This document shows positions 30,747 through 51,692 of a stretch of 64,000 nt of DNA, one piece after another. The DNA lies in the NCBI GenBank assembly GCA_951801825.1, contig CATOOF010000002.1:31058-95057 (forward strand). Direction: 5' to 3'. Under the pieces are notes generated by a model that saw only the letters and a list, made by a program, of their open reading frames with translations, was not told the origin of the DNA and did not search any database. This DNA is from an uncultured Alphaproteobacteria bacterium. GTDB lineage: Bacteria > Pseudomonadota > Alphaproteobacteria > Rs-D84. Position numbers and translations under genes: made by a program. Each line of letters opens with the position of its first letter. The stretch's first letter is position 1.

Positions 30747-30751
30747 TTAAA

Positions 30752-30928
30752 CCCGGCGGCAATGCGGCCCGGTACCAGCACCAGAGCCGGGGATAGCGCC
30801 GCCGGGCCATACAGTGTAAGACATTAAGGGGTCGGGGCCCGATACCGTTTCTGTGATTGGAGATGAGAAGACGGTAAAACAGGCCCCGACATTTATTTTT
30901 TACCCACGGATAAATATTTTATTTCCAC
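30752..30928. repeat. 177-bp two-hairpin element E, copy 1 (identical to 50785-50961)
   Basis: Base-by-base identity; hairpins CCCGGCGGC/GCCGCCGGG (30752-30806) and GTCGGGGCC/GGCCCCGAC (30831-30890). Confidence 0.9.
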
Positions 30929-30949
30929 CATAAAACATTCCCGCCGATA

Positions 30950-31126
30950 AAAAATGAACCGCTGTAAAATTTAAGCGGCTGGAGGTCTAAACTATATCAA
31001 TGAAATAGTGGGTTTATTTATGCATATCACCACCCTCCAACCATATAATATAGTCAGAGATTTTTAACGTGCCCCGGCACGCATTGATAAGAGGTTTAGA
31101 TTCCCCACACTAACATCGTTAGTGCA
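30950..31126 (-). ncRNA. Structured X/Y ncRNA, unit A1
   Basis: Promoter TTGCGC-17-TATTAT (31160-31132); + strand GTTTAGA 31094-100 vs TCTAAAC 30986-92, CATTGAT 31082-88 vs ATCAATG 30996-31002; closing stem 30977-31042; terminator CCGC..GCGG-TTCATTTTTT. Confidence 0.8.
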
Positions 31127-31175
31127 CATGAATAATATCATATATAGAAATGTAGCGCAAGAAAAAAATAAATGC

Positions 31176-31363
31176 AAAAACCACTCACTATGAAATGGGC
31201 GGGATTGGAGTATATAAACTATACCAATGATATAGAGCGGCTTATTTGAATCAAAGATTCTTATTCGCCTGCGCTCCAATCCCATAACATAGAGCTATGT
31301 TCATGCTTTTGCATGCATTGGTAAAGAGGTTTAGATTCCTCATATCTGCAACACGCCGATACA
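31176..31363 (-). ncRNA. Structured X/Y ncRNA, unit A2
   Basis: Promoter TTGAAA-17-TATAAT (31398-31370); CATTGGT 31316-22 vs ACCAATG 31223-29, GTTTAGA 31329-35 vs TATAAAC 31213-19 (1 mismatch); stem GGGATTGGAG/CTCCAATCCC. Confidence 0.8.
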
Positions 31364-31410
31364 TAGGTAATTATACATAAGATTTTATAGGATTTCAATA
31401 TATAAAAAGT

Positions 31411-31622
31411 GGTTGGAGCTACAATCTATCGTAAAGTATAGCGGGCTTATTCATGTATATCACCCACTCCAACCATAAAAAGTGGTTGGACGTTAAGAAC
31501 TACTATCAACGAAATAGAACGACTTATTGGTTATTCGTCGTCATCCAACCATAAAAGGCGCCGGGGGTAAGAAACTATCTCGATGGAATAGCCGATTTAT
31601 TTATATATCATCGGCCCCCGGC
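31411..31622 (-). ncRNA. Tandem array of three orphan 3' modules (A3 31411-31474, A4 31484-31550, A5 31560-31622)
   Basis: Each has the closing stem, the GA(A/T)(T/A)..AATAA hairpin and the CTAT-loop-ATAG hairpin; separated by ATAAAAAGT/ATAAAAGGC. Confidence 0.75.
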
Positions 31623-31627
31623 CATGC

Positions 31628-31656
31628 AAAAAAATCTGCCCCCGCGGGTGGGGCGT
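31628..31656 (-). terminator. carD terminator
   Basis: GCCCC..GGGGC hairpin followed by AGATTTTTTT on the minus strand. Confidence 0.7.
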
Positions 31657-31660
31657 GGAA

Positions 31661-32221
31661 CTACGATTCGTCTTCGATTTCTTCTTCTTCGTCGCCTTCG
31701 ACCGCGTTCAAATCAATTTCCTTTGGTATGCCCAAAATGTCTTCGATTTTATCTGATGCCTCGTCTAAATCTATTTTGTGTAATACCGCAAATTCCTGGG
31801 CCATGCGTTCCAGCGCGCGCAGGTACAGCTGGCGCGCAGAAAATGTCATGGTATCGGCCGCACTGCGCCGCTGCAGGTCGCGCACAACCTCCGCCAGTTT
31901 CATCGGGTCGCCCGAGTTTATGTTTTCTTCGTATTGTGCCGCACGGCGTGCCCATATCATGCGCTTGGCCCCGGCCTTGCCCTTGGCGGCGGCGATTGCC
32001 TCATCCATCTTTTTGGCCGATGTTAACGGACGCAGACCCGATATCTCGGCACGTTCGACCGGAACGCGCAGGGTCATGTGGTTGCGCTCAAAATCAATGA
32101 CCAGCATTTTTACCTTCTGGTCGCCAATTGTTTGCTCTTCGACGCGTAATAGTTTGCCGACGCCCTGGGTCGGATATACGACGTATTGTCCTGTTTTAAA
32201 GTCTAATTTCTTGCTTGCCAT
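31661..32221 (-). CDS. carD: CarD/CdnL transcription factor
   Basis: FKTGQYVVYPTQGVG, GLRPL, WARRAAQYEENINSGD..AEVVRDL. Confidence 0.93.
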   Translation of the reverse strand: MASKKLDFKTGQYVVYPTQGVGKLLRVEEQTIGDQKVKMLVIDFERNHMTLRVPVERAEISGLRPLTSAKKMDEAIAAAKGKAGAKRMIWARRAAQYEENINSGDPMKLAEVVRDLQRRSAADTMTFSARQLYLRALERMAQEFAVLHKIDLDEASDKIEDILGIPKEIDLNAVEGDEEEEIEDES

Positions 32222-32339
32222 TTGGCCGTACCCTTTAACGTTGCCATTCTCTCTGACATATCATGCATTATATCATAAAATAAGCAAAAAACAAACACTC
32301 GCGAAAAAAAATAAAGAAAAGCGCCCGTTCGGGCGCCTT

Positions 32340-32882
32340 TTATCGTGGCAAGCGGCGGCGAATCGCACCGGTGCGTCGCACACTGGATGCGCGACTGCCG
32401 ACGTCGGTGCCGCTGGACGTGGCACAATGCCATTCACCGTTCAGTAAAACCGCCGTTTGACCGCCGGGACAATCCGGCTTTTCCAGGCGCCATGCAAAAC
32501 AGCTGCCTTTTTGGTATGACTGGTATGTGGCGTTGTCGCCGCCGCCGCGTGTATATGCACCGTATTCCGCATTCCATATACCCGCCGCCTGGCCGCCGCA
32601 CCATTTACGCTCACCAAAACATTCGATGCAATTACCGCTGGCATCGCATAGCTCTGCCGGGGCGGATGTGGATTTGTAGCCCGACGCGGCCGTGTTGCCG
32701 TGGCCCATTGATTTACCAGTTTCCAAATCCATACACCACAGCTTTTGACACTCGGCCGCATTTATGCCGTCGATGTTGTTGTGGCTGGTTAAAATATAGC
32801 CCGGACCGCATGACGTAAACGCCGCGTTTGCGCCGCCGGCGGCTAAGATTATACTGGAAATTGCGAAAATAATCTGTTTCAT
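32340..32882 (-). CDS. Secreted Cys-rich hypothetical protein
   Basis: MKQIIFAISSIILAAGGANA signal peptide, paired Cys. Confidence 0.8.
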   Translation of the reverse strand: MKQIIFAISSIILAAGGANAAFTSCGPGYILTSHNNIDGINAAECQKLWCMDLETGKSMGHGNTAASGYKSTSAPAELCDASGNCIECFGERKWCGGQAAGIWNAEYGAYTRGGGDNATYQSYQKGSCFAWRLEKPDCPGGQTAVLLNGEWHCATSSGTDVGSRASSVRRTGAIRRRLPR

Positions 32883-32940
32883 CTCTCGGTATCCGTTTAG
32901 ATACATTTTACACTTTTTTCGACCAAATCGCAAACGTTTA

Positions 32941-33369
32941 TTACTGGCCCAGGCCCGCCGGCGTAAACCGCCCGATGTTGTTAAACAGCTCCTGCAGGGC
33001 GTTCAGCTCTATCGCGGCCGGAATCTCCGTCTCGCCGTCGGCGATGCGAACGTTTGGCAAATCATCATCGCGCAGGACGCGCGTCTGTGTTACGCGGTTG
33101 CCCGATACCCATGCCAACAGCACTGTTTTATTATCAAACGTATGGGGCAGGGGGCCGCAATAGTTTTCATCCGCACCGTAATAAATCCAGATTTCGTCGC
33201 CGTACTGGGTCTTTACCTGGGGCATGCCAATTTTTTCGGTCAGTGCGTTTGTTGTTTTTATATCCGCAACAACCGTATCCAAATCCGACGGGAATACGTA
33301 TCCGCGATGCTTGGTCTGAAATGTGCAGGCCGACAGGGCCGCTAAAAATATAAGTAAACTTTTTCTCAT
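32941..33369 (-). CDS. bamE: Outer-membrane assembly lipoprotein BamE/OmlA-like
   Basis: LSAC lipobox, HRGY, IGMPQ..WIYY, ELNALQELFNNIGR. Confidence 0.75.
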   Translation of the reverse strand: MRKSLLIFLAALSACTFQTKHRGYVFPSDLDTVVADIKTTNALTEKIGMPQVKTQYGDEIWIYYGADENYCGPLPHTFDNKTVLLAWVSGNRVTQTRVLRDDDLPNVRIADGETEIPAAIELNALQELFNNIGRFTPAGLGQ

Positions 33370-33429
33370 ACCGATAAAGTTACAACAATTCATATTGTCG
33401 GTGCAACCAAAAAAGATTCCGAATCGCCG

Positions 33430-34158
33430 TTACATTACAAAGTCTTCGCCCAGATAGACTTTTTTAACCATTTCATCTTTGACGATTTCGGCCGTGGTTC
33501 CGTGTTTTAGGATTTTACCGTCATGCAAAACATAACTGCGGTCGGTAATACCCAATGTTTCGCGAACATTATGGTCGGTAATAATAACCCCCAGGCCGCG
33601 ATTTTTCAGCTGGGACACCAGACTGCGGATTTCGTTTACCGCAATCGGGTCAATGCCGGCGAACGGCTCGTCCAGCAGGATGAACTTTGGGTCGTTGGCC
33701 AATGCACGCGCGATTTCAACGCGGCGACGCTCGCCCCCCGACAGGGCGGTCGCAGGACTGCGGCGCAGGGCCGATATTGAAAACTCGTCCAGCAAGGCAT
33801 CTAGCTTTATCTTGCGCTTTTTACGGCTGGGCTCTACCACCTCCAGTATCGCCATGATGTTCTGTTCCACCGACAGGCCGCGGAAAACACTGTTCTCCTG
33901 TGGGAGGTAGCCGATGTGCAGGCGCGCACGCTGATAAAACGGCAGGTGGGTTATATCCTGAGAGTTTAAAAATATTTGGCCGCCGGTGGCACCTATCTGG
34001 CCCGTGATGCAATAAAATGCCGTGGTCTTGCCCGCGCCGTTGGGCCCCAGCAGGCCAACCGATTCGCCCTGGCGTGCGATAAGTGAAATGTCGCGGATAA
34101 CCATACGCTTTCCGTATGATTTCGATAGGTGTTCGACACGTAATACCGATTGCTTCAT
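33430..34158 (-). CDS. lptB: LPS export ABC transporter ATP-binding protein
   Basis: GLLGPNGAGKTT, GYLPQENSVF, LSGGERRRVEIARAL, LDEPFAGIDP, ITDHNVRETL. Confidence 0.96.
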   Translation of the reverse strand: MKQSVLRVEHLSKSYGKRMVIRDISLIARQGESVGLLGPNGAGKTTAFYCITGQIGATGGQIFLNSQDITHLPFYQRARLHIGYLPQENSVFRGLSVEQNIMAILEVVEPSRKKRKIKLDALLDEFSISALRRSPATALSGGERRRVEIARALANDPKFILLDEPFAGIDPIAVNEIRSLVSQLKNRGLGVIITDHNVRETLGITDRSYVLHDGKILKHGTTAEIVKDEMVKKVYLGEDFVM

Positions 34159-34634
34159 AATTTTATCACCAGTTCTTTTGTTAATATGCGGTCGCCGTTG
34201 CTGGAATCGATGCGGACATCACCAATCAGGCGGATTGTTCGTTTCTTGCGGTCGTATTGCGCCGTGCGTGACGTTATATCCTGGGTTATGGTCTGGCCCC
34301 CGGATTTGCGCGTAATCGTGCCCGATACAATGTCCATGTATATTATGTCCGGTGTCTTGTATTCCTGGCGGGCGGTGGCCGCACGCAGGCGGAACGGTGC
34401 ACCGTTTTTATCCGTGCCGGCAAACGATGCACCCGACATTTTAAACTGGTTGCTGATTACGTCGGTCATGTTTATCGCGGATATCGGTGTCCACAACAGC
34501 TGCTTTGTAAACAGGGCGCCCGCAACCAGGGCCGCCACCATTACCAGCCCCCAGCCGGTAAAGAAAAACTGCCACAGGCGCATCCAGCGCCGATGCTTTG
34601 TGAAAATAATAAAACTGCGTTTGTCCTTTTGCAC
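34155..34634 (-). CDS. lptC: LPS export periplasmic protein LptC-like
   Basis: N-terminal TM, FAGTDKNGAPFRLRAATARQ, LIGDVRI; overlaps the lptB start. Confidence 0.75.
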   Translation of the reverse strand: MQKDKRSFIIFTKHRRWMRLWQFFFTGWGLVMVAALVAGALFTKQLLWTPISAINMTDVISNQFKMSGASFAGTDKNGAPFRLRAATARQEYKTPDIIYMDIVSGTITRKSGGQTITQDITSRTAQYDRKKRTIRLIGDVRIDSSNGDRILTKELVIKL

Positions 34635-34721
34635 ATACGCAGTTTAGACCGCCCGTACGAAAAAAGCAATTTTTATATTTGTACAGGCATCTTTTTATGT
34701 TATAATCATAGGCAAGAGAGA

Positions 34722-35534
34722 ATGAAAAAAACCTTACTTATTTTTGCCGCTATTGTCACAGTGTGTCCAAACTGGGCGCATGGGGCGGTAACAATTAAAA
34801 AGGCGGCGCCTGTTTCTACCAAGGCAACATCCCCCGTCGAAAGTACCGGCAGTTTGGTGCCAACGGTGCTGGGGCTGGTCGGTGCGGTAAAGCAGCTGGA
34901 CGCCAAGACCAAGGAATTAACCGCGGAATGTATTCCGACCGCGGCTGAAATTACATTTGTAAACAATACTGTAAAGGAATGGGCCAAAACAGGTGCATCA
35001 ACCGCAGACGAGGCCGAAAAGGCATTAGGTATGCGTCGGTGCAGGGATGTGTCCAGCGGCGGGTATGCGCGTATGGTTGAAATGAATGCCGGTGACGACG
35101 ATGACGAGTTTTTATGTACCGACTGGTTCGGCGGGCCCGGTAATGTCGGAATGGTATGGGAGAATTTCCCAATGGCGGCAAAGGCAACATATTGTGCCGA
35201 TGGTTCTTTTGAGTGCGGCAACTCGCAAAAGAAAACTGTTTCAAATATTTACAATATATTCAATTTAATTGATTTTAGTGATGCGGATTATACCCCGTCA
35301 GAGGCAAAAATGGCCAGCCAGCTGATGGCAAAGATTGAAAAGTGTTCGGATGCAAAACTGAGTGCCACAAAACGCGCCATGTGGGGTGAATTTTTGGTAA
35401 ATACCATCAGTAATGTTGGCCAGCCAACGAATACCGGTGCAATTATGCAGTCGGTCGGTAATATTTCAAACAGTGGTTTGGGCGGGGGAATATCATCCCT
35501 GTCGGGATTGGCAACCCAGCTGTTGAATAAATAA
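34722..35534 (+). CDS. Secreted hypothetical protein
   Basis: MKKTLLIFAA..WAHGA signal peptide. Confidence 0.8.
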   Translation: MKKTLLIFAAIVTVCPNWAHGAVTIKKAAPVSTKATSPVESTGSLVPTVLGLVGAVKQLDAKTKELTAECIPTAAEITFVNNTVKEWAKTGASTADEAEKALGMRRCRDVSSGGYARMVEMNAGDDDDEFLCTDWFGGPGNVGMVWENFPMAAKATYCADGSFECGNSQKKTVSNIYNIFNLIDFSDADYTPSEAKMASQLMAKIEKCSDAKLSATKRAMWGEFLVNTISNVGQPTNTGAIMQSVGNISNSGLGGGISSLSGLATQLLNK

Positions 35535-35626
35535 CTATCGCGGCACGTTACATGCCGCGTTTTTTCTGCTTTACTCGGACCCTTAAAAATCGTATAATAA
35601 GGGGGATAATATATAAAGGAACGGGG

Positions 35627-37168
35627 ATGAAAAACAAATCTGTTGCATCAACATTAGTTATTGCGCGTATGATTGCGCTGGCGTCGGTGGTGGGACTGGC
35701 CGGGTGTGCATCAATGCGTGGCGCTAATAATGGCGAATATGCGCCTGTGGCAACGCCCACTGTTGATTATGTGGAATCGTTGGATGTTTATTCTGCCCCG
35801 CACAAGGATTCATTCCTGAACCAGTTGGCGATGAATTATCGCTCTTATGCCATTTATAATGCCCGTACCAGCGGATATGCCGATATGGGCGAACTGTTCG
35901 CACAAAAGGCAGTGGCCGCATTTTCTGGGGAATTACCGTTCCCGGAAACGCTGTCTAACTGGCCCGTAGATGATGAGCAGACCGCGTTTGAGCTTAGCCA
36001 GGCGTACAATGAATTATTGGACGAGCTGAAAAACGATGCCAGCGAGAATAACCCGGAATTAGCCGCAGAGGCCCAGGCAAAATTTGACTGCTGGTTGTCG
36101 GCGGCGGCATCCGGCCAGAAATCTACCGCCCGCGAATGCCGTACGCGTTTTAACAAAACAATGACCGCACTGCGTGATTGTCGTGGCGGCAAAATAGTAA
36201 GCCCGCGTCCGACAAAAACAGTGACATCTACGGAAACGATTGCGGTTGAGACAACAACGCGTCGTGCGGATGCGCAAAATTATTATCCTGATACGCGTAA
36301 TATGTCTGCAATGACTGGTGCGGGACGCGCCCGCGAAGGTGTTATTATCGTTAATAATGTAAATGTTCCAGAGCACCTGATTAATCCTGTTCCGGTTCAG
36401 CCGATGGTGTTTAACCAAAATATTTACGGCGGCGACAAGTCTATGAGTAACAGTTTGAACAACAATGCAAATAATAATTCGTTGACGGATTGTGTTGATG
36501 ATGAATGCACCACGGTTGTTCAGATGCCAAACGCCCGTGCAGAGGCCCCGGCCGCCGCCGCAGAGATTCCGATGATGGGTGACGAATTCGTAAGCCGTGA
36601 CGAGTTTATAAATATGATGATGGCGATGCGTGCAGAGTTGCAGGCAATAAACGCCCGTCTGGACAAGATTCAGGCCGCCCAGAACGATAAAACCATGATA
36701 AAGGTTCAGCAGATTCCGCTGGAACCGTCCCAGCATATAATGGAAGAGGTCTTTGAGATTCACTTTGATTTCAACAAGGCCACTATAAAGCCGGAATATC
36801 AGGATTTAATCCGTAAACTGGCCGGTGCAACCCAGGCAAACAAGAATATAAAGGTATCTGTGGTCGGTCATACCGATACATCCGGTTCCAAGGATTATAA
36901 TTATTCGTTGGGTGGGCGTCGTGCAGAGGCGGTACAGAATATGCTGATAAAATATGGCATACCCGCCAGCCAGATTGTCGCAGTGTCTGCGGGCGAAGAA
37001 GATTTGGCGGTACCGACACCGGATGGTGTTCCAAATGCTCAGAACCGCCGTGTTCGCGTTGTAAAAGAGGTGTATTCCGAGGACAGGGCACAATCAGCGG
37101 CACCCGTCGCGATTGAGGTAACAGAGGTTTCCGCCGACGAATGCGGAATGTATGGTTGCGGCCAGTAA
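35627..37168 (+). CDS. OmpA-family lipoprotein
   Basis: LAGC lipobox, AQAKFDCW, IHFDFNK..VVGHTDTSG..YNYSLGGRRAEAV..NRRV. Confidence 0.9.
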   Translation: MKNKSVASTLVIARMIALASVVGLAGCASMRGANNGEYAPVATPTVDYVESLDVYSAPHKDSFLNQLAMNYRSYAIYNARTSGYADMGELFAQKAVAAFSGELPFPETLSNWPVDDEQTAFELSQAYNELLDELKNDASENNPELAAEAQAKFDCWLSAAASGQKSTARECRTRFNKTMTALRDCRGGKIVSPRPTKTVTSTETIAVETTTRRADAQNYYPDTRNMSAMTGAGRAREGVIIVNNVNVPEHLINPVPVQPMVFNQNIYGGDKSMSNSLNNNANNNSLTDCVDDECTTVVQMPNARAEAPAAAAEIPMMGDEFVSRDEFINMMMAMRAELQAINARLDKIQAAQNDKTMIKVQQIPLEPSQHIMEEVFEIHFDFNKATIKPEYQDLIRKLAGATQANKNIKVSVVGHTDTSGSKDYNYSLGGRRAEAVQNMLIKYGIPASQIVAVSAGEEDLAVPTPDGVPNAQNRRVRVVKEVYSEDRAQSAAPVAIEVTEVSADECGMYGCGQ

Positions 37169-37279
37169 GTTCGGAAATTCCTGAATTTTAGTCGGGAATT
37201 TTACGATTATGCTTGACAAAAAACGAGTGTTGGTATAAACTGGGCGTGTCAGAGAGATGTTTTTGAAGAGGCATTGAAA

Positions 37280-37450
37280 ATGACTGATAAGGTAAATATG
37301 TTTAATAAAGCGGGCGCTGCGATGCAGCAGGCGGCGGGTTATCGTCGTGGAATGGCACGGGTTCAGGCATTTGACCTGGCAAAGGCTTTCCAACGCCGTA
37401 ATATAACATTTGATGGCATGGATGTATTTCCGGGCCAGAACGAAAAATAA
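37280..37450 (+). CDS. Small hypothetical protein (56 aa)
   Basis: TTGACA-17-TAAACT promoter (37213-37241), GAAGAGG RBS, MTDKVNMFNK..FPGQNEK*, terminator 37473-37498. Confidence 0.7.
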   Translation: MTDKVNMFNKAGAAMQQAAGYRRGMARVQAFDLAKAFQRRNITFDGMDVFPGQNEK

Positions 37451-37536
37451 AACATCCGGTTCAATTTTTCTTAAGGGGGCATTGCGCCCCCTTGTTTTAT
37501 TGTCCGATAAAACTGACCTCGACCGGGTGCGAGGGG

Positions 37537-39912: not shown

Positions 39913-42900
39913 TGATTACCGTGAATGTTCCGCCATTGCCGATTGCAAGTATTTCGGGGTTATACATTGATTGGCCGTATACGGGTGCAATGGTAAATGT
40001 ACCGCTTGTTCCGGCCTGGGCCATGTATTCGTATACAGATTCTTTGCGATTTATATCCGCATAGATTACGATGCGGTCTTCGCGTGTTTCTGCAAATTCA
40101 TATTCCCCGCGCAGTGATTCTGTATCCGCGATAAATCCGCCCGGCAACAGGTCCACGATTACGCCGCCGGGAACGTTTTTAACGTCCCCACGTGCGCGGA
40201 CAAATATTTTTACCAAAACACGGTCGCCGATTTTTGCGCTGGTAATGCGATTTCCGTCAACATCGTAATATTCGCGCGTTATTTCCATGCCCTGGGCGGC
40301 ATGTGCGATATGTGTTGGATATCCCTGGGCGGTTATTGTCCAAAATGGCGCCACGCTGGTTCCACAGTCGGGGCAACGTATATCTATTTTCTTGGCGCCG
40401 GTTGGGATTTTGGCAATAAATGCACCGCTTTTAGTTTCGCTGTGAACAGGTGTGCCGTCGGCTGTTACGGTCAGTAAATCCGTAATCTGGTTTGATGCGC
40501 CGATGTTGCCACTCTGGCCCAGTATGATGGATGCCGCCGTGAAAGATGTGTATTGGCCACTGTTTATATATTTCATTTGTTCCGGTGTCGGTTGTGATGG
40601 ATGGGCACCGAAATAGCGTGACGCCAAATACTGGTAAATAGAATTATTTGCAACTGTGTTGTTGAATTCGGACTCGTATTTTATCCGTGTTTCGGGTTTG
40701 TATGCCGATGCCAGGGATGCGGCGCGATCGTCTTGGTGCATGATGGAATATGCGGCCCCAATGTATGCACCCATCAGCTCTGATTGCCAGTTTTTAAGAT
40801 TGGCGTTTGCCCATTCTTCGAATTGGCCGATGTATGCGGTTGTGACAAATTCGTTTCGTGTAATGATATATATTGCAAATGCATGTGCCGCCGCGTCATG
40901 TGCATCGCGGATATTCGTTCCGGCGTATGTGCGCAGATAGTCCAGCGCACGCGATACCATTTCGCGTGGAACGTTGTAGCCGCGGTCGCGGGCGATGTTT
41001 AAAAACTCTACAACGTATGCGGTTATGTATGCCGCATCGGCGTCGGACTCATTGTTGCGTCCCGTGCCGCCGCCAGCCCACATTGCAAAAGAGCCATCAT
41101 CGTTTTGTCGATTTTTTAGAGTATTAACAGTATCAGTAATTTTTTTTGCCGCCATGTCATTCGTTATACCTAGAATATTGCTGGAACCGATGACGGCGTA
41201 TGGAATGGCGCGTGATATCATCTGTTCCGTACAGTTCCATTCGTAATGGTTCAGATATTCGACCAATGGGCGGACAACCGCATCAGAGCCATATGAGACA
41301 TACAAATTGTGTACCGCGTTTTCTGGATACATATCCGGCTTTTTAGGTTTCAGAACTGTTTTTTGTGAGTCCAGTCGGCCTATTTGAATATTGGTAATAT
41401 ATGGTGTCGCGGGGCGAACGGACATTGTTGCAACTGCACGGCCGATGGAATCGGGGCCGTTTGCAGATACATCTATGTCGGCAGAGCCCAGTGTGTTGCC
41501 GGCTGTGGCGTGATATGTTACCAATGAATCCGTGCCCTGGGCTATTTCAATGTCTGAGATTGGGCGCCCGGTTATATCTATGCCGGCGGAAGTTCCAGCG
41601 TTTACAGTAAACTTTTGGGGCTTTTCATTATCGGTCAGGTTTGTAACAACCGCATTTATATCGAATTTATCGCCGGGTGCCACGGCCAGTGGTGCGTTTA
41701 TTGTGACTATGACCGGGTGGCGGATTGTAACGGACGTGTCGGCGGCGCCGATGCTGGATTCGCCGGCGGCGATGGCAAATACGCGCAGTGTTCCGTTAAA
41801 CGAATCCGGGATTTGAAATGTTACACTGCCAGGTTTGCCGGCCGTGGCGGTTATTATTTTTGAATAGAATGCGACCGGCTTGTCCAGGCGGCGCGCAAAA
41901 GGATTGGCAATACCAGGCGTCGCACCGATCATGTCGTCATAATCTCCGCCGCCTGTTTTTGCAAATTCATGCAGTATTTTGTATTCGGGCAGTATCAGTG
42001 ACAGGATTTGGTATGTTTCAACCTGTAGTGCCGCTTTTTTAAAGAAGTGTTTTATCGGATTGGGAATCTGATAGCGTGCGACCTGCAATATGCCGTCGTT
42101 TACGGCAAATATCATCAAACGAGCATCGCGGTTGGTTTCATATTTAACGGTAAGCTTTGATTCCGCCAGTGTTTCCGGGGCATTCAGTTTTATTCCGATT
42201 GTGCGCCGCGCAGTGTCCGCCATAAAGGGCGCCACCGCATAAGTATATGGCGTTGTGAATATATCCCGACTGTTGATGTCGCGAACAAACGACACGTTTA
42301 CGTAACCTGTTCCCTCAAATCCTGCGGGAACTTCAATGTTTTGCACGGACTGGGTCGTGTCGGCCTTAAACCATTTATGGGCGTAAACTTTGTCGCGCTC
42401 TATCGTAATAAGGCCATATCCGGCATACGGGGATGTAACCGCTACGGATATGTTGTCACCGGGCGAATAAGATTGTGCGTTTAGTTTTATCTGTAATTGT
42501 GCAACGGTATCAGACCGCAGTTCGGTATTGACGTCGCCGGTAACAAAATATTCAATGTTTGCCATTGTTCGCCCGGCGGCGTCCATAACTTGCAGATAGT
42601 ATGTTCCCGGCGTTGTGGTGTCTAAATTTATATCCATCCCGTTTGCGGGCAGTGATATGTTTTCACTGGTAACGATTTTGTCGCGTGAAACAGTTTGATA
42701 TTTGTAATATCCCGCGCCATCTTTTACCAGGCTGGTTAAATTTTCACGGCGTATCAGACGCATTTCAATATCTGTTGCCGCGGTGCGCGTACCCGTGTGG
42801 TCAACCGCGATAAGATTAACGCTGCGTTTTGCGCCACGGTTTATATATGACAAATCAGAGTTGGCATGCCATCCGACAAGATATTTGGCGTTTGATATGC

Positions 42901-45646: not shown

Positions 45647-45814
45647 TCGAAAATTATTTTAAATCGCAAAGCCCGGAAATACAAGTTTTTTATTGGTTTT
45701 GATGCAGTTTTCATAAGATTCCTAATTATTTAGTTAAAACAGTGTGTTATAAAAGTCATGTGCGTCAGTCCGGAGGGCAATGTTTTTATGCCAACAGACA
45801 AAAGGAATAGTATC

Positions 45815-46435
45815 ATGATATATGGTTACATACGTGTTTCAACAGACCATCAGACAACTGAAAACCAGCGTTTTGAAATAGAGCGCTTTTTCGAAAAGCA
45901 GGGCTTGGTAATAGACAGCTGGATAGAGGAAATAATTTCCGCAACCAAGGATTTAAACAAGCGAAAACTGGGGCGCTTGATAAAGAAGGTTAAAAAGGAT
46001 GACTTGATTATCGCATCCGAATTGTCACGACTGGGGCGTAATTTGTTGCAGATTATGAGCATTTTGCATCATTGCATGGATATTGGTGCGCGCGTATGGA
46101 CGATAAAAGATAATTATCGGCTGGGTTCAGACATAACCAGCAAGGTTTTGGCATTTGCGTTTGGATTGTCTGCAGAAATTGAGAGAAATCTGATTTCCCA
46201 GCGCACAAAAGAGGCATTGGCGCGTTTAAAGTCAGAGGGCAAGCATGTTGGCCGTCCGCGCGGCAGCAGTAACGCATGCAAGCTGGAGGGGCGCGAGAAA
46301 TATATTATACAAAAGCTGAGCAATGGCAGTAGCAAGTACGAGATTGCACGGCGTCTGCGCGTTCATCGCGATACACTGACAAAGTTTATAGAACTTAATG
46401 GTATTGCGCCGGTGGCATCCGCACCTGTTGCGTGA
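45815..46435 (+). CDS. Serine recombinase (resolvase/invertase, Mpi-like)
   Basis: MIYGYIRVST, ELSRLGRN, AFAFGLSAEIERNLISQRTKEAL, GRP, C-terminal HTH. Confidence 0.92.
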   Translation: MIYGYIRVSTDHQTTENQRFEIERFFEKQGLVIDSWIEEIISATKDLNKRKLGRLIKKVKKDDLIIASELSRLGRNLLQIMSILHHCMDIGARVWTIKDNYRLGSDITSKVLAFAFGLSAEIERNLISQRTKEALARLKSEGKHVGRPRGSSNACKLEGREKYIIQKLSNGSSKYEIARRLRVHRDTLTKFIELNGIAPVASAPVA

Positions 46436-48253
46436 TTAAAACGCCATCGTGCGTTTTGCCAGGATAAAGAATTCGTCTGTGCCGGTCGGGTTGTCAACGA
46501 ATGCCGCTGTTACGAATTTGTACGTCAGCGAGTATTCAACCGCCGCGGCGCCGGCCAGGGATGCTGATGCGTCCTGGAACATCAGTGCGCCGTTGGCCGC
46601 GCGGCCTGTTGGCATGCGCATATGCATATCGCCCGACAGTATCATGTCTGTCATGGAAACATTCGCGCGCCAGTCGCCAATTTGTGCACCGGCGGATACA
46701 GATGCGGTATATATGCTGGAAAATTTTGTAATCATGGAGTCCGTGCGGCCGCGCGGATGTGTCGCGCCGACTTCCGGACGCAGGAATATTTTCGCGCCGC
46801 CAACATCAAATTCTTGATTTAAGGCGATAAATGTTATGGTTGTGTGTTCGTCTGTTCCCAACAGGCCGTCCGCGGCCAGGAATTCACTGCGGCGGAAACC
46901 GAATTCAATCGGGCCTGCGTTTGCGCTGGTCTTGGCGGGGTGGCGCAGGTGTTCGTATGCGCGGCCGTGATTTTTGATTTTGATATGGTCGTTAAGGTTT
47001 GTTTCAAACGCGCGGCCATAGTCGTCAACAAACGCCAGTTTTAAATCGGCCCCGCGCAGTTTGCGGCCGATTTGGCCCGGCACATGTGCCGCGCGCAACG
47101 GCGCGTTGCCGCCCGCGGCCAGCGGTACCGTTGCGGCACCCACCGGGCGTGTTGCACGTTCCAGGTCCAGCATTCCGTGGCCATATACGGCATCAACACC
47201 CGGCGTGCCCAAATCGCGTGCCGTTGTCAGCAACAGGTCTGTTATCTGGGGGGCGGTCATGTATGGGAATGCTTCACGGATAACCGCGACGGCGGCCGAT
47301 ACAATCGGGGCGGCAAAAGATGTGCCTGAGACAACGCGATTTCCGCTGTCGATGCCGGTTCCCGGCGCCGTGATGCAATATTCCATTGTTTCGCCGCATG
47401 CATTGCTGTAATCGGCCAAGCCTCCGCGCGTATCATCCCATGCAACAACATTGATAAAGTGGCCCTTCATCTCAGGTACAACGCGCGGCAACGCAGACAG
47501 CGCGCCAGACTGGCTAAGCCCTTCGTTACCGGCGGCCCATACGAAGATTGCGCCGTTGCCCGCGGCGGCGGCCAGGTTATCGATAAAGTTTTTATCGGTT
47601 AGGCGTTCCAGCTGCTGGCGTGAACGAATCTGGGTCGCGCGCATTTCTGTATTCCAGCTGGCGTTTATAATATCGGCATTTGCGGCGCGTGCCACAACAT
47701 CACCAATTTCGGCATAGGAAAAGAATTTATTATTAGCGCCGGCAATGTTGTATTTTTCAACCGTTGCATCTGCGGCAATCGGGCCCGCGGCAATGGCCGC
47801 CACCGCGTTGCCATGCCATGAATCAGCGTCCAGAACCGCGATAGTAGAGCCCTTGCCGGTATATCCGCGTGCCAGAGAATAGGCCAGGCGTATGCTGTCG
47901 TATTGTGCGTGATTTTTGTCATAGTCTTCGCGGGACATAACAGATGCAACGTGGGCTGCGCTGACGTCGGCACCGACATAGTCATATGCGTTCATTGTCG
48001 GCATCGGGCCGGCGTCATTGCCGCCGCCACCACCGCCGCCACCGCCGGCAAAAGCCATCGCGGCACCCGCGGCCGCGGCGCCGCCCAGTGCCAGGCCGGC
48101 ACCAATCCAGCCCTTGGAAATCTTTTTACATTCGTAGGGATGATTCTTTTTATATATAGGATTATCACAATTGTTATCATTGCGCGGCGCGGCATATGTC
48201 GCGATTGGTGCGGCGGTAACGGCGGCGATTAAAATCAGGCGTAATGCAAACAT
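46436..48253 (-). CDS. Secreted S8 subtilisin-like serine protease
   Basis: Triad motifs IAVLD, HGNAVA, GTSFAAP; AAGN oxyanion motif; YGHGMLDL. Confidence 0.92.
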   Translation of the reverse strand: MFALRLILIAAVTAAPIATYAAPRNDNNCDNPIYKKNHPYECKKISKGWIGAGLALGGAAAAGAAMAFAGGGGGGGGGNDAGPMPTMNAYDYVGADVSAAHVASVMSREDYDKNHAQYDSIRLAYSLARGYTGKGSTIAVLDADSWHGNAVAAIAAGPIAADATVEKYNIAGANNKFFSYAEIGDVVARAANADIINASWNTEMRATQIRSRQQLERLTDKNFIDNLAAAAGNGAIFVWAAGNEGLSQSGALSALPRVVPEMKGHFINVVAWDDTRGGLADYSNACGETMEYCITAPGTGIDSGNRVVSGTSFAAPIVSAAVAVIREAFPYMTAPQITDLLLTTARDLGTPGVDAVYGHGMLDLERATRPVGAATVPLAAGGNAPLRAAHVPGQIGRKLRGADLKLAFVDDYGRAFETNLNDHIKIKNHGRAYEHLRHPAKTSANAGPIEFGFRRSEFLAADGLLGTDEHTTITFIALNQEFDVGGAKIFLRPEVGATHPRGRTDSMITKFSSIYTASVSAGAQIGDWRANVSMTDMILSGDMHMRMPTGRAANGALMFQDASASLAGAAAVEYSLTYKFVTAAFVDNPTGTDEFFILAKRTMAF

Positions 48254-48394
48254 TTTTCCCTCTTCTCTTTTAAATATAGACACAAAACACTGTTTTGTCA
48301 ATATAGGAATGTAAATTTTTATTATTTTTACAAATATCAAAAAATACTTGATTTTTCAGGGGCACTGCGCTATTATCGGCGTACGCGCCATGCG

Positions 48395-48475
48395 CGAATA
48401 ACACAACCGTTGTGCCTAAAATTTCTGTCCAAGATATATTTGGTCTGATGCACACGGTGAGGATAACAACAGAAA
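48395..48475 (+). promoter_or_regulatory. Putative rpsB (S2) autoregulatory leader
   Basis: ACCGT(T)GTGC..GCACACGGT stem followed by GAGGATAAC upstream of rpsB, similar in layout to t44/S2 leaders. Confidence 0.45.
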
Positions 48476-48489
48476 AAAGGATAAAAATC

Positions 48490-49341
48490 ATGGCATTGCC
48501 AACCTTTACAATGAAACAGCTGATGGAAGCTGGCGTTCACTTTGGTCACCACACACGTCGCTGGAATCCGCTGATGACACCGTACGTTTACGGCGTAAAA
48601 GATAAAATTCACATTATCAACTTGAACAAGACGGCACCGTTGTTGCATCGCAGTCTGGTCGCGCTGGAGGCTATTGCGGCCGCCGGCGGCAAGGTTCTGT
48701 TTGTTGCGACCAAGCACCAGGCAAAAGATATTGTTAAAGATGCGGCGGAACGCTGTGGCCAGTATTATGTTAACAACCGCTGGTTGGGTGGTATGCTGAC
48801 AAACTGGACAACGGTATCCCAGTCTATTCGTCGTCTGAAAAAGATGGAAGCAGACATTGAAAACGCGGACAAATTGGGGCTGACCAAGAAAGAAGTTGGC
48901 GTCATGACCAAGGAAGTTGAAAAACTGCGCAGCATTTTCGGCGGTATTCTGGAAATGCATGGCACACCCCAGGCGATGGTTGTAATCGATGTACCGCGTG
49001 AAATGAACGCCGTACGCGAGGCGAAAAACCTGGACATTCCGACGGTTGCAATCTGTGATACGAATGCGAATCCGGAAATGGTCGATTACCCGGTACCGGG
49101 CAACGACGATGCGGCCCGTGCGACCCAGCTGTACTGTGATTTGTTCGTAGATGCGATTTTGTCCGGTATTGAAAAGCGCCTGGGCGGCGTTGCCGGCAAG
49201 AAAGTAGAATCCGATATGAAGGCGGCGGCGGCCGATGATTTCGAATCGGAAACAAAAGAACGCGAAGCGCGCGCAAAGTCCAAAATGACCGAAGCCCGCG
49301 CAGAACGTCGCGGCAAATTGGCTGAAAAAGCGGATAAATAA
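48490..49341 (+). CDS. rpsB: 30S ribosomal protein S2
   Basis: LMEAGVHFGH..RWNP, RWLGGMLTNW, DTNANP..PGNDDA. Confidence 0.98.
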   Translation: MALPTFTMKQLMEAGVHFGHHTRRWNPLMTPYVYGVKDKIHIINLNKTAPLLHRSLVALEAIAAAGGKVLFVATKHQAKDIVKDAAERCGQYYVNNRWLGGMLTNWTTVSQSIRRLKKMEADIENADKLGLTKKEVGVMTKEVEKLRSIFGGILEMHGTPQAMVVIDVPREMNAVREAKNLDIPTVAICDTNANPEMVDYPVPGNDDAARATQLYCDLFVDAILSGIEKRLGGVAGKKVESDMKAAAADDFESETKEREARAKSKMTEARAERRGKLAEKADK

Positions 49342-49416
49342 TAATACCCTGTGGCGTCCGGGCGTATGTCCGGGCGCCGGCGGGAATATCAATCAAATAA
49401 TTAACGGGAGAAGACA

Positions 49417-50286
49417 ATGGCAGAAATAACAGCAAAATTGATTCAGCAACTGCGTGAAAAAACAGCCGCAGGTATGATGGATTGTAAGAAAGCGCTGACT
49501 GAAAATAACGGCGATATCGAGGCCGCTGCCGATTGGCTGCGCCAGAAGGGTATCGTAAAGGCCGCGTCCAAGGCGGGCCGCGTTGCGGCATCGGGCCTGG
49601 TTACGGTTGTAAAGTGCGACAACATGGGTTGCGTTGTTGAATTGAACGCGGAAACAGATTTCGTTGCAAAGAATGACAAGTTCCAGAAGTTGGTTGCGGA
49701 TGTTGCCGCACGCGCGCTGGAACTGAAGGGTGATTTTGATGCAACGCTTAGCGCGGTCAAGGACGACATTGCCGCCACGATTTCCACAATTGGTGAAAAC
49801 ATGAACCTGCGCCGTATCGCAAAGGTATCGGGCGACCATATCTATACATACGTTCATAATGCCATGGTTCCCGGCATGGGCCAGATTGGTGTTGCGGTTG
49901 CAATTGACGGCAATGGTGCGGGCATTGATGAAATTGGGCCGAAAATCGCGATGCATATTGCCGCGAACAAGCCGGAATTCATGACAATCGATGACGTTGA
50001 CCCGGCGGCGGTTGAACGCGAAAAGAAAGTGTTTATCGAATCGGGTGCCACCGCGGGCAAACCGGAAATGGTTGTTGAAAAAATGGTAGCGGGCCGTATT
50101 TCCAAATACTATGCGGAATCCGTACTGGAAGAACAGCCGTTCGTTATGGACCCGTCGAAAAAGGTTAAGGATGTTGTCGCCGAAGCGGGTGGAAAACTGG
50201 CCGGTTTTGCGTACTATGTCCTGGGCGAGGGTATCGAAAAGCAAGAAGATAACCTGGCCGACGAAGTCGCCAAGATGTTAGGATAA
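49417..50286 (+). CDS. tsf: Elongation factor Ts
   Basis: LREKTAAGMMDCKKAL, ELNAETDFVAKN, AMHIAA. Confidence 0.98.
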   Translation: MAEITAKLIQQLREKTAAGMMDCKKALTENNGDIEAAADWLRQKGIVKAASKAGRVAASGLVTVVKCDNMGCVVELNAETDFVAKNDKFQKLVADVAARALELKGDFDATLSAVKDDIAATISTIGENMNLRRIAKVSGDHIYTYVHNAMVPGMGQIGVAVAIDGNGAGIDEIGPKIAMHIAANKPEFMTIDDVDPAAVEREKKVFIESGATAGKPEMVVEKMVAGRISKYYAESVLEEQPFVMDPSKKVKDVVAEAGGKLAGFAYYVLGEGIEKQEDNLADEVAKMLG

Positions 50287-50357
50287 AGTAAGGCTTGGTG
50301 TTAGGAAAACAGATAAATCCGGTTTTTGCCGGATTTATTGTTGCAGTGGTGATTAGA

Positions 50358-50759
50358 ATGGAAAGTTATAAAGTAGGGGCGATAACGCCCAATGGACGTG
50401 GGGTTCTGAATGTGTGGTTGCGCAATGGTGGTATGGCGCCCGTGCATATTCCCGATGCGTATTTAGGATATCTAAAGCGTGGAATGCGCGTAATTGTGCA
50501 TCGTAATCGGGGTGGCACCGCGGTTGCATACAGCTTTGGCGGATATATGTATTTTAATATGATGCCAACCACGCGCGATACGGCGCATCAGTTTATTCAA
50601 AACTTTAAAGACATATACAGCGGCAGCCTGGACAGTTTGGTATTTAAGTATGAGCTGAACAAGGCCCTGCGCAAGTTAGAGATGCGCCCGACGCGCAGCC
50701 CGGTAACGAATATCATGCTGTATAAAGAGGCGCACCGAAAATATCAGGTGCAGCGCTAA
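50358..50759 (+). CDS. Hypothetical protein
   Basis: 133-aa ORF after the tsf terminator; no motif recognised. Confidence 0.65.
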   Translation: MESYKVGAITPNGRGVLNVWLRNGGMAPVHIPDAYLGYLKRGMRVIVHRNRGGTAVAYSFGGYMYFNMMPTTRDTAHQFIQNFKDIYSGSLDSLVFKYELNKALRKLEMRPTRSPVTNIMLYKEAHRKYQVQR

Positions 50760-50784
50760 CGCGGCGTGTCGGCTTGATTATTTT

Positions 50785-50961
50785 CCCGGCGGCAATGCGG
50801 CCCGGTACCAGCACCAGAGCCGGGGATAGCGCCGCCGGGCCATACAGTGTAAGACATTAAGGGGTCGGGGCCCGATACCGTTTCTGTGATTGGAGATGAG
50901 AAGACGGTAAAACAGGCCCCGACATTTATTTTTTACCCACGGATAAATATTTTATTTCCAC
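50785..50961. repeat. 177-bp two-hairpin element E, copy 2
   Basis: Identical to 30752-30928. Confidence 0.9.
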
Positions 50962-50982
50962 TAACAAACATTCCCGCCGATA

Positions 50983-51157
50983 AAAAATGAACCGCTGTAA
51001 AATTTAAGCGGTTGGAGGTTAACAACTATATTAAGGTATAGCCCAGTTCATTCAAGTATATCACTGGCCTCCAACCAAAGAAGTTAGAGTTTTATCACGC
51101 CCCGGCGTGTTTCCTTAATAAGAGGTTGTTATGCCTCGCACTAACATCGTTAGTGCA
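50983..51157 (-). ncRNA. Structured X/Y ncRNA, unit B1
   Basis: Promoter TTGCGC-17-TATTAT (51191-51163); GTTGTTA 51125-31 vs TAACAAC 51020-26; CCTTAAT 51113-19 vs ATTAAGG 51030-36; stem 51010-51076. Confidence 0.8.
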
Positions 51158-51206
51158 GATGAATAATATCATATATATAAATGCGGCGCAAGAAAAAAAT
51201 AAATGC

Positions 51207-51383
51207 AAAAACCACTCAATGGAAAATAGGTGGGGTGGGAGAATAACAATCACTATTAAGAATGACGCAGTTTATTGGTTATTCACTGCTCTCCAACCCC
51301 AGAACATCCAGAGTCAATCATACCTTGGTATGATAATCTTAATAATAGGTTGTTATGCCTAATACCGACAACACATCGATACA
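51207..51383 (-). ncRNA. Structured X/Y ncRNA, unit B2
   Basis: Promoter TTGAAA-17-TATAAT (51418-51390); TTGTTAT 51350-56 vs ATAACAA 51243-49; TCTTAATA 51337-44 vs TATTAAGA 51254-61; stem 51232-51300. Confidence 0.8.
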
Positions 51384-51423
51384 TAGGTAATTATACATAA
51401 GATTTTATAGGATTTCAATATAT

Positions 51424-51584
51424 AAAAAGTGGTTGGAGGTTCTAAACTAACATAAGATTAGCGGATTTATTGAGCCAAAGGCTTTATTCATCGCCCTCCA
51501 ACCCCGTGGTTACCAGAGTTTTATCATAATAATATGCTATGTGAAATGGGTTTAGAAGCCCAATACCGACAACACATCGATACA
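51424..51584 (-). ncRNA. Structured X/Y ncRNA, unit B3
   Basis: Promoter TTGAAA-17-TATAAC (51619-51591); GTTTAGAA 51550-57 vs TTCTAAAC 51440-47; TATGT 51538-42 vs ACATA 51450-54; stem 51431-51503. Confidence 0.75.
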
Positions 51585-51692
51585 TAGGTAGTTATACATA
51601 AGATTTTGTAGGATTTCAATATATTTAAACATCTGAAAAAGTTGCGTGGACGCTAAAAAGCTGATATCATTTGGGCAAAAGGGATTTTAGGT

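Follow-up and report, generated by a model that had tools for sequence, protein, structure and literature searches.

A probable attenuating leader RNA, a divergent relative of sRNA-Xcc1, in tandem arrays of an Enterousia-like genome

Introduction

Two clusters of repeated sequence, A and B, lie about 20 kb apart in a stretch of 64,000 nucleotides (nt) from an uncultured alphaproteobacterium (GenBank assembly GCA_951801825.1, contig CATOOF010000002.1, positions 31,058 to 95,057; hereafter the window). An original prediction, made from the letters of the window, saw them as duplicated cassettes of non-coding RNA whose flanks had stayed nearly identical while the bodies in between diverged with matched changes in their pairing segments. 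What kind of locus does this, and what are the RNAs? The genome (897 kb in four contigs, estimated to be 95.7% complete) is Candidatus Enterousia-like. Candidatus Enterousia, of the order Rs-D84, is described as a gut lineage with reduced genomes (PMC12306168), and the accessible part of that paper makes no mention of riboswitch, noncoding or repeat. Here we argue that clusters A and B are probably tandem, minus-strand arrays of an attenuating leader RNA, a divergent branch of the small RNA (sRNA) family sRNA-Xcc1, which run into a conserved hairpin element, E.

Results

The clusters belong to a genome-wide family of three-way junctions

A crude search for the inverted ends of the repeated unit returned many copies throughout the genome, and 37 distinct places came up with an nhmmer profile at E ≤ 0.01; 35 of these are free of open reading frames (ORFs) of at least 120 amino acids (aa), and the other two overlap only the over-extended 5′ end of a downstream ORF. 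A covariance model, R1, built from 38 aligned copies, matches 41 copies in this genome, all in one sense and 57–82 nt long, plus four weak mirror matches that arise because the closing helix P1 is palindromic. With four further copies of a sister type (41+4), the family numbers about 45 copies in 0.9 Mb. The units in the two clusters make up eight of the 41 (nine with the copy at 31557-31624, which lies beyond cluster A as originally delimited), so A and B are not the special pair for which they had been taken.

The unit is a three-way junction. Helix P1, of 10 base pairs (bp) and usually GGUUGGAGG/CCUCCAACC, encloses hairpin Pa and then hairpin Pb; Pa carries a conserved GAAUAUAUUGAAUAAG loop, GAAUA...AAUAAG (consensus GAAUAUA...UUGAAUAAG in 60 copies), and a junction of 7–8 nt, J, precedes the 3′ strand of P1. 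Pairing holds for 91.7% of the 709 cells in the 38-copy alignment (75.7% in shuffles), double changes occur at 15 of the 19 pairs, and none of 500 shuffles matches the observed values on any measure. Pairing falls to 27–53% when the partner strands are slid, a control that favours the structure because the structure was derived from the very sequences counted.

Junction J pairs with an upstream hairpin, and P1 has a competitor

The loop of a hairpin, H1, that lies 25–100 nt upstream of the core in the RNA sense is an exact complement of J. Complements of at least 7 nt were found in 29 of 36 copies of this genome, as opposed to 69 of 1242 mismatched unit pairs, and in 32 of 41 units of the final set. 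The contact recurs in other genomes, in 51 of 56 copies (52 from genus genomes, four from other families of the class) versus 131 of 2852 controls, with 24 distinct J 7-mers. The H1 stem covaries too (GAGG/CCUC, GCGAG/CUCGC, GGG/CCC), and a reading of the pairs places the variable part at about four central positions of a G-U-N-N-N-N-A helix. At the position of the first leader of cluster B, the addresses differ among four species and are compensated in all of them (TAACAAC, TAAGAAAC, TTAGAAC, TAAGAGC). Neighbours in an array, on the other hand, often share their address, as in leaders A1/A2 and B1/B2, and are therefore not orthogonal; 22 of 41 junctions match the H1 loop of at least one other unit. 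The proposal of diversifying selection for orthogonal specificity thus finds no support here.

A further strand, anti-P1, lies just upstream of P1 and is complementary to its 5′ strand. It tracks the P1 variants, with CUCCAAC accompanying GGUUGGAG, CUCCUGA accompanying UCAGGAG, CCUUUUUGCC accompanying GGCAGGAAGG and CCUUUCAGUU accompanying GACUGGAAGG. At least seven contiguous pairs with the P1 5′ strand can form in 78 of 96 units; the swapped-type control for this count is weak because most P1 types share GGAGG, and it is the listed variant pairs that make the case. In the minimum-energy fold of a full leader, the anti-P1 hairpin, a long H1:J helix and a terminator form together (z = -5.1). 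Since P1 excludes both anti-P1 and the terminator, the leader has the anatomy of an attenuator, and a conserved structured domain is joined to an expression platform of mutually exclusive helices, as in riboswitch-type architectures. Sequence comparison establishes that the P1 and anti-P1 helices exist and are conserved; that they switch termination, in answer to some trigger, is what we infer from them.

The A and B units read on the minus strand, and most units end in terminators

Several asymmetries define the sense of the RNA. On the favoured strand there are 42 G-U cells and 10 A-C cells; a T-run follows within 45 nt of all 41 units in sense but of 20 of 41 in antisense; and a -35/-10 pattern precedes 20 of 41 units in sense, against two of 41. 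In 34 of the 41 units a terminator hairpin with T-run shares part of its 5′ arm with the P1 3′ strand, in four P1 is followed directly by the T-run, in one the hairpin stands separately and two are unclear. In a consensus scan, the best sigma-70-like promoter matches of the A and B regions (TTGAAA-17-TATAAT, 11/12) map to the minus strand (31398-31370 and 51418-51390). By these sequence signals, the RNAs of clusters A and B lie on the window's minus strand. A plus-strand orientation is contradicted by gene starts on the opposite strand and by A-runs before the hairpin abutting P1, which become terminator T-runs when read on the other strand. Read in that sense, what had been called promoter blocks are a terminator T-tract, then a promoter with -35 and -10 boxes, and lastly the 5′ hairpin with which the following unit opens.

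What follows the unit falls into few classes. An ORF of at least 60 aa, with a ribosome-binding site and a start 44–74 nt downstream, comes after 22 of 41 units; another unit lies within 350 nt of 13, element E follows four, and two have none of these. Among the small downstream products, seven of ten match helix-turn-helix families at E ≤ 0.01, three of them above the Pfam cut-off. Pfam gave no family for ten other downstream products, of which seven (129–228 aa), class-3 products paralogous to the protein encoded at 61723-62328, have signal-peptide-like starts and many cysteines and three (84–92 aa) lack such starts. Contigs of the RNA-library runs X16 and X17 cover 30752-31339 (as contigs they show neither strand, ends nor level). 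Beyond about 31340 they give almost no cover, with a depth of 0.06–0.26 in one bin and 0 thereafter, until 31478-31548 (X17) or 31620 (X16). The contigs of runs X14 and X15 are kilobases long and may be DNA.

Anatomy of clusters A and B

With the sense of the RNA defined, the two clusters resolve into the following parts, all on the minus strand (putative for element E).

30752..30905, element E, copy A: two hairpins; 100% identical to 50785-50938
30844-30875, invariant 32-nt hairpin of E, copy A: minus-strand loop CAUCUCCAAUCAC
30949..31160, leader A1: core 30975-31043 (58.2 bits with R1), J 30986-30992, J:H1 complement of 7 nt
A1 promoter: -35 at 31155-31160, -10 at 31132-31137
A1 5′ parts: H0 31108-31124; H1 31091-31106 (loop AAUCUAAA); P4 31068-31081; anti-P1 31053-31059
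30949-30978, A1 terminator hairpin and T-run: overlaps the P1 3′ strand; CCGCU-10 nt-AGCGG, then UUCAUUUUUU; taken from the sequence, as the computed A1 fold paired otherwise and its twin B1 folded as such a hairpin
31176..31398, leader A2: core 31201-31282, J 31212-31219 (one mismatch to H1)
A2 promoter: -35 at 31393-31398, -10 at 31370-31375; TTGAAA-17-TATAAT, 11/12 match
A2 other parts: H1 31326-31341; P4 31297-31318; anti-P1 31290-31295; terminator 31176-31203
31404..31624, three abutting short units: A3 31409-31475, A4 31482-31551, A5 31557-31624
50785..50938, element E, copy B: invariant hairpin 50877-50908
50982..51191, leader B1: core 51008-51077 (75.9 bits), J 51019-51026, promoter 51163-51191
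B1 other parts: H0 51139-51155; H1 51122-51137 (loop CAUAACAA); P4 51096-51109; anti-P1 51083-51089; terminator 50982-51011
51207..51418, leader B2: core 51232-51299 (64.9 bits), J 51243-51249
B2 promoter: -35 at 51413-51418, -10 at 51390-51395; 11/12 match
B2 other parts: H1 51346-51361; P4 51318-51333; weak terminator 51207-51233, -4.1 kcal/mol
51424..51619, leader B3: core 51429-51504 (59.3 bits), J 51440-51447; P1, then T-run directly
B3 promoter and 5′ parts: -35 at 51614-51619; -10 (TATAAC) at 51591-51596; H1 51547-51562; P4 51524-51544

The short units A3, A4 and A5 score 55.2, 67.7 and 51.8 bits with R1 and consist of a core whose P1 runs directly into a T-run; no cis H1 partner was found for any of the three.

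Conserved flanks and compensated cores

A repeat search of the window recovers the collinear duplication. It pairs 30752-30986 with 50785-51019 (235 nt, 98% identity), 31084-31214 with 51115-51245 (131 nt, 85%), and the 95 nt of 31324-31418 with both 51344-51438 (88%) and 51545-51639 (76%), the last of which is the third near-copy already noticed in the original prediction. A global alignment scored in 30-nt windows, with positions in A coordinates, draws the mosaic: identity is 1.00 over 30752-30916 and 0.90–1.00 onward to 30976 (E and spacer), falls to 0.60–0.73 over unit 1 (30977-31105), returns to 0.87–0.93 over the inter-unit block (31106-31193), drops to 0.43–0.77 over unit 2 (31194-31347) and is 0.90–1.00 over 31348-31407. 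Near-identical flanks do surround diverged bodies, and the matched changes are equally real. Read on the plus strand, the pairing segments are TCTAAAC/GTTTAGA in A1, TAACAAC/GTTGTTA in B1, ATAACAA/TTGTTAT in B2 and TTCTAAAC/GTTTAGAA in B3, all compensated; A2, with TATAAAC/GTTTAGA, has one uncompensated mismatch, and its orthologue in genome G097 (about 97% identical by eye, not computed) pairs perfectly. The X/X′ re-coding thus stands as the J:H1 helix, though as a trait of the whole RNA family and not of this cassette pair.

Loci orthologous to both A and B, recognised by their flanking proteins, occur in four other genomes (G032, G085, G097 and G099), with loci C and D also present in G032, and 63–95% of the sampled words of 30700-31700 are present in 13 DNA runs from eight studies. 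The duplication is therefore not an assembly artefact. Within these old orthologous loci, E and its spacer group by sequence type rather than by locus. The two window copies share 0.99; those of G097 share 0.97 with each other and 0.97 (A) and 0.96 (B) with the B copy of G085; those of G099 share 0.98 with each other and with the A copy of G085; and different types share 0.50–0.68. Such grouping supports gene conversion between two loci 20 kb apart as the process that homogenised E and spacer. The earlier suggestion of conversion or cassette shuffling is supported for E with its spacer and by the turnover of units. In the promoter and terminator blocks that A and B share, the effects of recombination are indistinguishable from those of purifying selection.

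Unit 1 at locus A, by contrast, stays orthologous, with 0.77–0.82 shared among the window, G097 and G085 (a comparison of those rows whose block boundaries were found, which excludes window B and both G099 loci). The Pb hairpin of the first core at locus B of G099 is of the A1 type, by reading and not by an identity figure. The number of units varies as well: B orthologues hold two or three long units, and A3–A5 were not seen in the two A orthologues examined, G097 and G085. Contigs of runs X14 and X15 skip 73 nt, 31401 to 31475, which is unit A3, between 16-nt direct repeats; judged from these contigs, strains differ here in the copy number of the tandem units. Unit turnover, which the original prediction had suggested looking for in relatives and strains, is thus observed in both.

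A contig of run X16 (record 13) follows cluster A over 30752-31339 at about 98%, but its letters before 30752 match the left flank of cluster B; it is either a chimera across the shared E or a strain with its arrays exchanged.

Element E follows the arrays

This genome holds four copies of E, at A, B, C and D, and the element is present in six of 121 genomes of the genus. In all 18 copies (six genomes plus L006) it adjoins a unit, downstream in the unit's sense. Its hairpin of 32–36 nt is 97–100% identical across the six genomes even where the outer stem differs (window copies, L003, L004 and L139-L155), and in five of six short (D-type) copies a T-run follows the hairpin on the minus, or sense, strand only. 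Because E always adjoins and follows a unit, keeps this hairpin and, in short copies, has a T-run on the minus strand only, we read E as the putative non-coding payload of the arrays. It gave no Rfam match. EutX and Rli55 are riboswitch-controlled non-coding RNAs, and the arrangement is similar in that a terminating leader precedes a non-coding RNA instead of an ORF, the place of that RNA being taken by E at A1, B1, C and D; it differs in that the strand and function of E are putative.

The minus-strand loop of the E hairpin, CAUCUCCAAUC, is complementary to the P1 5′ strand, (G/A)UUGGAG, of nearly all units, which suggests a trans contact between E and the leaders.

The unit is a divergent relative of sRNA-Xcc1

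A permissive Rfam scan of the leaders placed sRNA-Xcc1 (RF02221) at the exact coordinates of the units and in their sense, the scores being 35 and 31.6 bits for two units of L160 and 28 bits for L099. Across the genome, RF02221 gives 10 matches of 28–41 bits, six of which are R1 units (28–35.6 bits, full length, same strand) and four the sister type. Reciprocally, R1 matches five of 20 canonical RF02221 loci at E < 0.01, full length and at the RF02221 coordinates. The alignments, over positions 1–87, contain P1, the two hairpins and the single-stranded junction before the P1 3′ strand, and the unit consensus has the internal-loop sequences of the first RF02221 hairpin (AAUAcA... / ...GAAUAA). 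By these matches the unit is a divergent, sub-threshold relative of sRNA-Xcc1.

sRNA-Xcc1 is described as an 88-nt sRNA of Xanthomonas campestris, seen by Northern blot and end mapping (PMC2996969), and the literature calls it a trans-acting sRNA. It is also reported upstream of symE in integron cassettes (10.1101/2025.06.18.660453) and of an ORF6N protein in APSE phages (10.1101/2020.03.17.996009), on the same strand in both cases, and five tandem homologues lie in a Xylella island, about 381–386 nt apart by subtraction of their starts (PMC12189769). Judged by titles and abstract openings, none of the listed sRNA-Xcc1 papers treats the RNA as a leader.

The canonical family, which passes the cut-off in 24 of the 151 genomes sampled across the phylum, has a similar layout. 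At 17 of 20 canonical loci J has its complement in an upstream hairpin loop (controls, 51 of 380), and at 12 of 20 a second complement of at least 6 nt lies within 70 nt downstream (controls, 60 of 358), often abutting the ribosome-binding site. Four of ten downstream proteins are antirepressor-like (two Bro-N+P22_AR_C, one Bro-N below the Pfam cut-off and one Phage_pRha). The two groups thus share a P1 of 9–10 bp, a first hairpin with an AAUA.../...GAAUAA loop, a second hairpin, a junction of 6–8 nt that leads into the P1 3′ strand, complementarity of that junction to the loop of an upstream hairpin, a position upstream of a same-strand gene and tandem occurrence. They differ in that the Enterousia P1 has another, nearly fixed sequence and other genes lie downstream; in that the Enterousia units lead into P1-overlapping intrinsic terminators whereas canonical loci lead into the second complement beside the ribosome-binding site, which is not enriched at Enterousia units next to ORFs (4 of 21 versus 62 of 412); and in number, with 41+4 copies in 0.9 Mb against at most six matches, some below cut-off, in any of 150 other genomes of the phylum.

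At many of the canonical loci L201-L220, the upstream loop sequence recurs next to the ribosome-binding site (for example as CCCCGAAAAGGAG), where it again complements the junction; the Rfam model does not include this three-part layout. The sister subfamily in the present genome has P1 GGUCGGGGG and a length of 91–96 nt, and lies outside the window at C2:338974-339069, C2:235671-235763, C2:325330-325420 and C1:103515-103607. It scores 29–41 bits with RF02221 and has the same leader layout, with H1:J pairing and a terminator in at least one copy; two copies precede genes for predicted secreted Cys-rich proteins of 258–261 aa.

The family is widespread in relatives

Among other genomes, R1 matches 33 of 36 from the genus (2–51 matches per genome) at E ≤ 0.001. 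At that threshold it also matches 13 of 24 genomes in the remaining families of the order, and at E ≤ 1e-4 it matches 10 of 149 in other families of the class. The 12 best matches in genus relatives keep the core, the J:H1 contact and the terminator wherever flanks are present, most have a promoter-like -10, and nine are followed by a ribosome-binding site and ORF. Four matches from other families have the same layout in three cases, the fourth lacking its upstream flank; three of the four precede an ORF with a ribosome-binding site, the genes being lipoprotein or pilin-like as predicted from their N-termini alone.

Discussion

A proposed leader device with two exclusive folds

We interpret each long unit as a self-contained leader, with its own sigma-70-type promoter, hairpin H1, the anti-P1 strand, the three-way junction with J, and a terminator overlapping the P1 3′ strand. 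In one fold, P1 would form together with the J:H1 contact and the terminator would be weakened; in the other, anti-P1 would pair with the P1 5′ strand and the terminator would form. Elsewhere in the genome, the same unit sits 44–74 nt before the starts of small XRE-type regulators and predicted secreted Cys-rich proteins, while arrays A and B (and C and D) run into E, a putative conserved hairpin RNA. The re-coded segments that raised the question would then be ordinary compensated covariation, in the J:H1 helix and stems, among old paralogues. Gene conversion between A and B would have kept E and spacer nearly identical, recombination or purifying selection, which look the same here, would have kept the promoter and terminator blocks alike, and recombination between shared blocks would change the number of units.

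Several observations weigh against this account. No copy in the genome reaches the RF02221 gathering threshold of 53 bits (the best has 41), so the link to that family is made by chained and reciprocal sub-threshold matches, and the A and B units, which give no match of their own at E ≤ 10, are tied to it through the family. A cis H1 partner of at least 7 nt is missing from nine of the 41 units. The terminators of A2 (-7.3 kcal/mol) and B2 (-4.1 kcal/mol) are weak, and A3, A4, A5 and B3 end in P1 plus a T-run, where P1 would promote rather than oppose termination. The sequence of P1 is near-invariant within the genus, which would not usually be expected of a helix with no role beyond pairing and hints at a further partner. 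The slid-partner control is biased toward the structure, as said above; single G-U versus A-C cases in two types of E point in opposite directions; and the RNA-library runs are contigs, which carry neither strand nor transcript ends.

Could the variable addresses serve antisense control instead?

Phage P1 c4 and P4 CI are structured leader RNAs in which a short variable segment is complementary to upstream and downstream sites of the same transcript (the a1/a′/a2 and seqA/B/C layouts). They control an antirepressor or premature termination, and compensated substitutions change their specificity. An address-coded antisense system of this kind, in which the free J of one core pairs in trans with the H1 loops of transcripts of the same address, and in canonical loci with a second copy beside the ribosome-binding site, so that variable addresses form separate channels, is an alternative that we consider unlikely. 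The likeness is of layout, a leader-embedded structured RNA with a short variable complementary segment, and the canonical loci come close to the three-part arrangement, with their upstream and downstream complements and their antirepressor-like products. The genome also holds cores without cis H1, among them A4 and A5, whose J match the H1 loops of the XRE-gene leaders C1:195682 and C1:264652. In phage P1, C4 RNA controls the Ant antirepressor (PMC8201110), and the 88-nt Xanthomonas RNA (PMC2996969) would lack H1 if it corresponds to the 87-position Rfam core. The Enterousia units themselves are less accommodating. The downstream copy is not enriched next to their ORFs; the Rfam C4 model (RF01695) gives no match in the whole genome at E ≤ 10; cores without cis H1 are trans-compatible in five of nine cases, no more commonly than the others (17 of 32); and the shared addresses of array neighbours do not make orthogonal channels.

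Is the junction the aptamer of a riboswitch?

The attenuating leader that we favour would need some trigger, and a metabolite or ion might provide it, the junction and the J:H1 contact forming an aptamer whose ligand stabilises P1 and prevents termination. The near-invariance of GAAUA...AAUAAG (60 copies from 56 loci, 52 in the genus and four in other families of the class) would suit this idea, as would the mutually exclusive helices, the tandem arrangement and the conservation across several alphaproteobacterial families. As in purine-class three-way-junction riboswitches, P1 closes the junction and its 3′ strand is shared with a terminator hairpin; unlike them, the Enterousia unit has an extra anti-P1 strand, an external hairpin contact and non-metabolic genes. 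Transport and metabolism are absent from the genes served, which comprise XRE-type regulators, unannotated predicted secreted proteins and antirepressors, besides a hairpin RNA; this context suggests no candidate ligand. There are up to 51 matches per 1 Mb genome, the sequence of P1 is itself conserved, and the riboswitch models of Rfam 15 do not match the units. Searches for Hfq, GGDEF and RelA_SpoT gave no match in the genome, an absence that, in a 95.7% complete assembly, is not proof. This makes two self-made global signals unlikely as ligands, and we have set aside a second-messenger riboswitch or an Hfq partner as an identity for the unit. On balance we regard a classical riboswitch as quite improbable.

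A repeat at the DNA level, or plus-strand genes?

Spread as a selfish miniature repeat, in the manner of miniature inverted-repeat transposable elements (MITEs) or repetitive extragenic palindromes (REPs) and with the inverted ends GGTTGGAGG/CCTCCAACC as terminal repeats, strikes us as very improbable. It would account for the inverted ends, for a range of 0 to 51 matches among genomes of one genus, and for the gain and loss of units between close species and strains. The strand symmetry that was looked for is absent, with 42 G-U against 10 A-C cells; orientation and spacing are fixed relative to promoters, terminators and start codons; covariation runs through three helices and extends by a long-range contact beyond the supposed element; and gain and loss resemble recombination between shared blocks, such as the 16 nt at the 73-nt skip. 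The arrangement originally proposed, plus-strand RNA genes with promoters and with E as a shared upstream element and terminator, can call on the second hairpin of E, followed by ATTTATTTTTT on the plus strand in this genome, and on the B1 P4 hairpin, which scores as a weak plus-strand terminator, but it is contradicted by the G-U/A-C, T-run, terminator and gene-start evidence, by the minus-strand position of the best promoters and by the lack of a plus-strand T-run after E in other species, and is hardly credible.

Meaning for the sRNA-Xcc1 family and for the lineage

The units are, on this comparison, a greatly expanded, terminator-coupled form of a catalogued RNA kind, and the form is new. 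Their mode of action in this lineage is probably better described as that of a leader device than of a free sRNA, and the same probably applies to the canonical family: the sRNA-Xcc1 members that we examined stand directly before genes and have an unannotated upstream hairpin that pairs with the junction, which suggests a leader or c4-like device. A single RNA device before at least 22 genes and four hairpin RNAs, in a 0.9 Mb genome without Hfq, GGDEF or RelA/SpoT matches, points to a major control layer particular to this uncultured gut lineage. One could go further, and only tentatively, to propose that sRNA-Xcc1 is in kind a leader-embedded, address-coded control like that of phage P1 c4 and P4 CI, and no ordinary trans-acting sRNA. 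Its junction, free to vary at about four positions, would pair with the upstream hairpin loop and, in versions on mobile elements, with a site at the ribosome-binding site; in Enterousia it would have been domesticated and expanded into a genome-wide network, with the A3–A5 cores and the E loop acting in trans on groups of leaders. We rate this as a doubtful extension. Clusters A and B, finally, would offer a clean natural case in which conversion evens out parts of an RNA locus and its structured cores go on diverging with compensation.

Further observations

Beyond these readings, we reject a tRNA-like or split tRNA/transfer-messenger RNA (tmRNA) identity of the units, since none of the 45 ordinary tRNAs that ARAGORN places in the genome coincides with a unit. 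The sole tmRNA signal, a partial match at 31163-31228, is at chance level (12.2 bits versus 47), and at Rfam gathering thresholds the window gives one tRNA only. ARAGORN reports no tmRNA gene in the genome, where the alphaproteobacterial two-piece tmRNA model was not searched. A literature search with the P1 words of the unit found only unrelated papers.

Between the A1 and B1 terminators and E lies a 12-codon minus-strand ORF, at 30922-30947 (MFYGGNKIFIRG) and 50955-50980 (MFVSGNKIFIRG); it is probably non-coding, since G097 does not conserve it and no convincing ribosome-binding site precedes it. Among the best 80 tyrS loci, minus-strand units stand just upstream of tyrS in two only (L005 and L006). 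In L141, L147, L148 and L151, another palindromic repeat, TGTCATTGCGAG...CTCGCAATGACA, which ends in CTGGATTGC, occupies the place of A3–A5; it also occurs before tyrS in relatives and was not seen in the stretches of the window that were read.

Three more units of the family lie elsewhere in the window, each group 48 nt from a gene.

17758-17825 and 17994-18070, plus strand: two tandem units; 48 nt on, a 119-aa XRE-type helix-turn-helix gene at 18119-18478, whose product matches Pfam HTH_3 (5.4e-14)
62377-62446, minus strand: one unit; 48 nt on, a 201-aa gene at 61723-62328 for a predicted secreted Cys-rich protein

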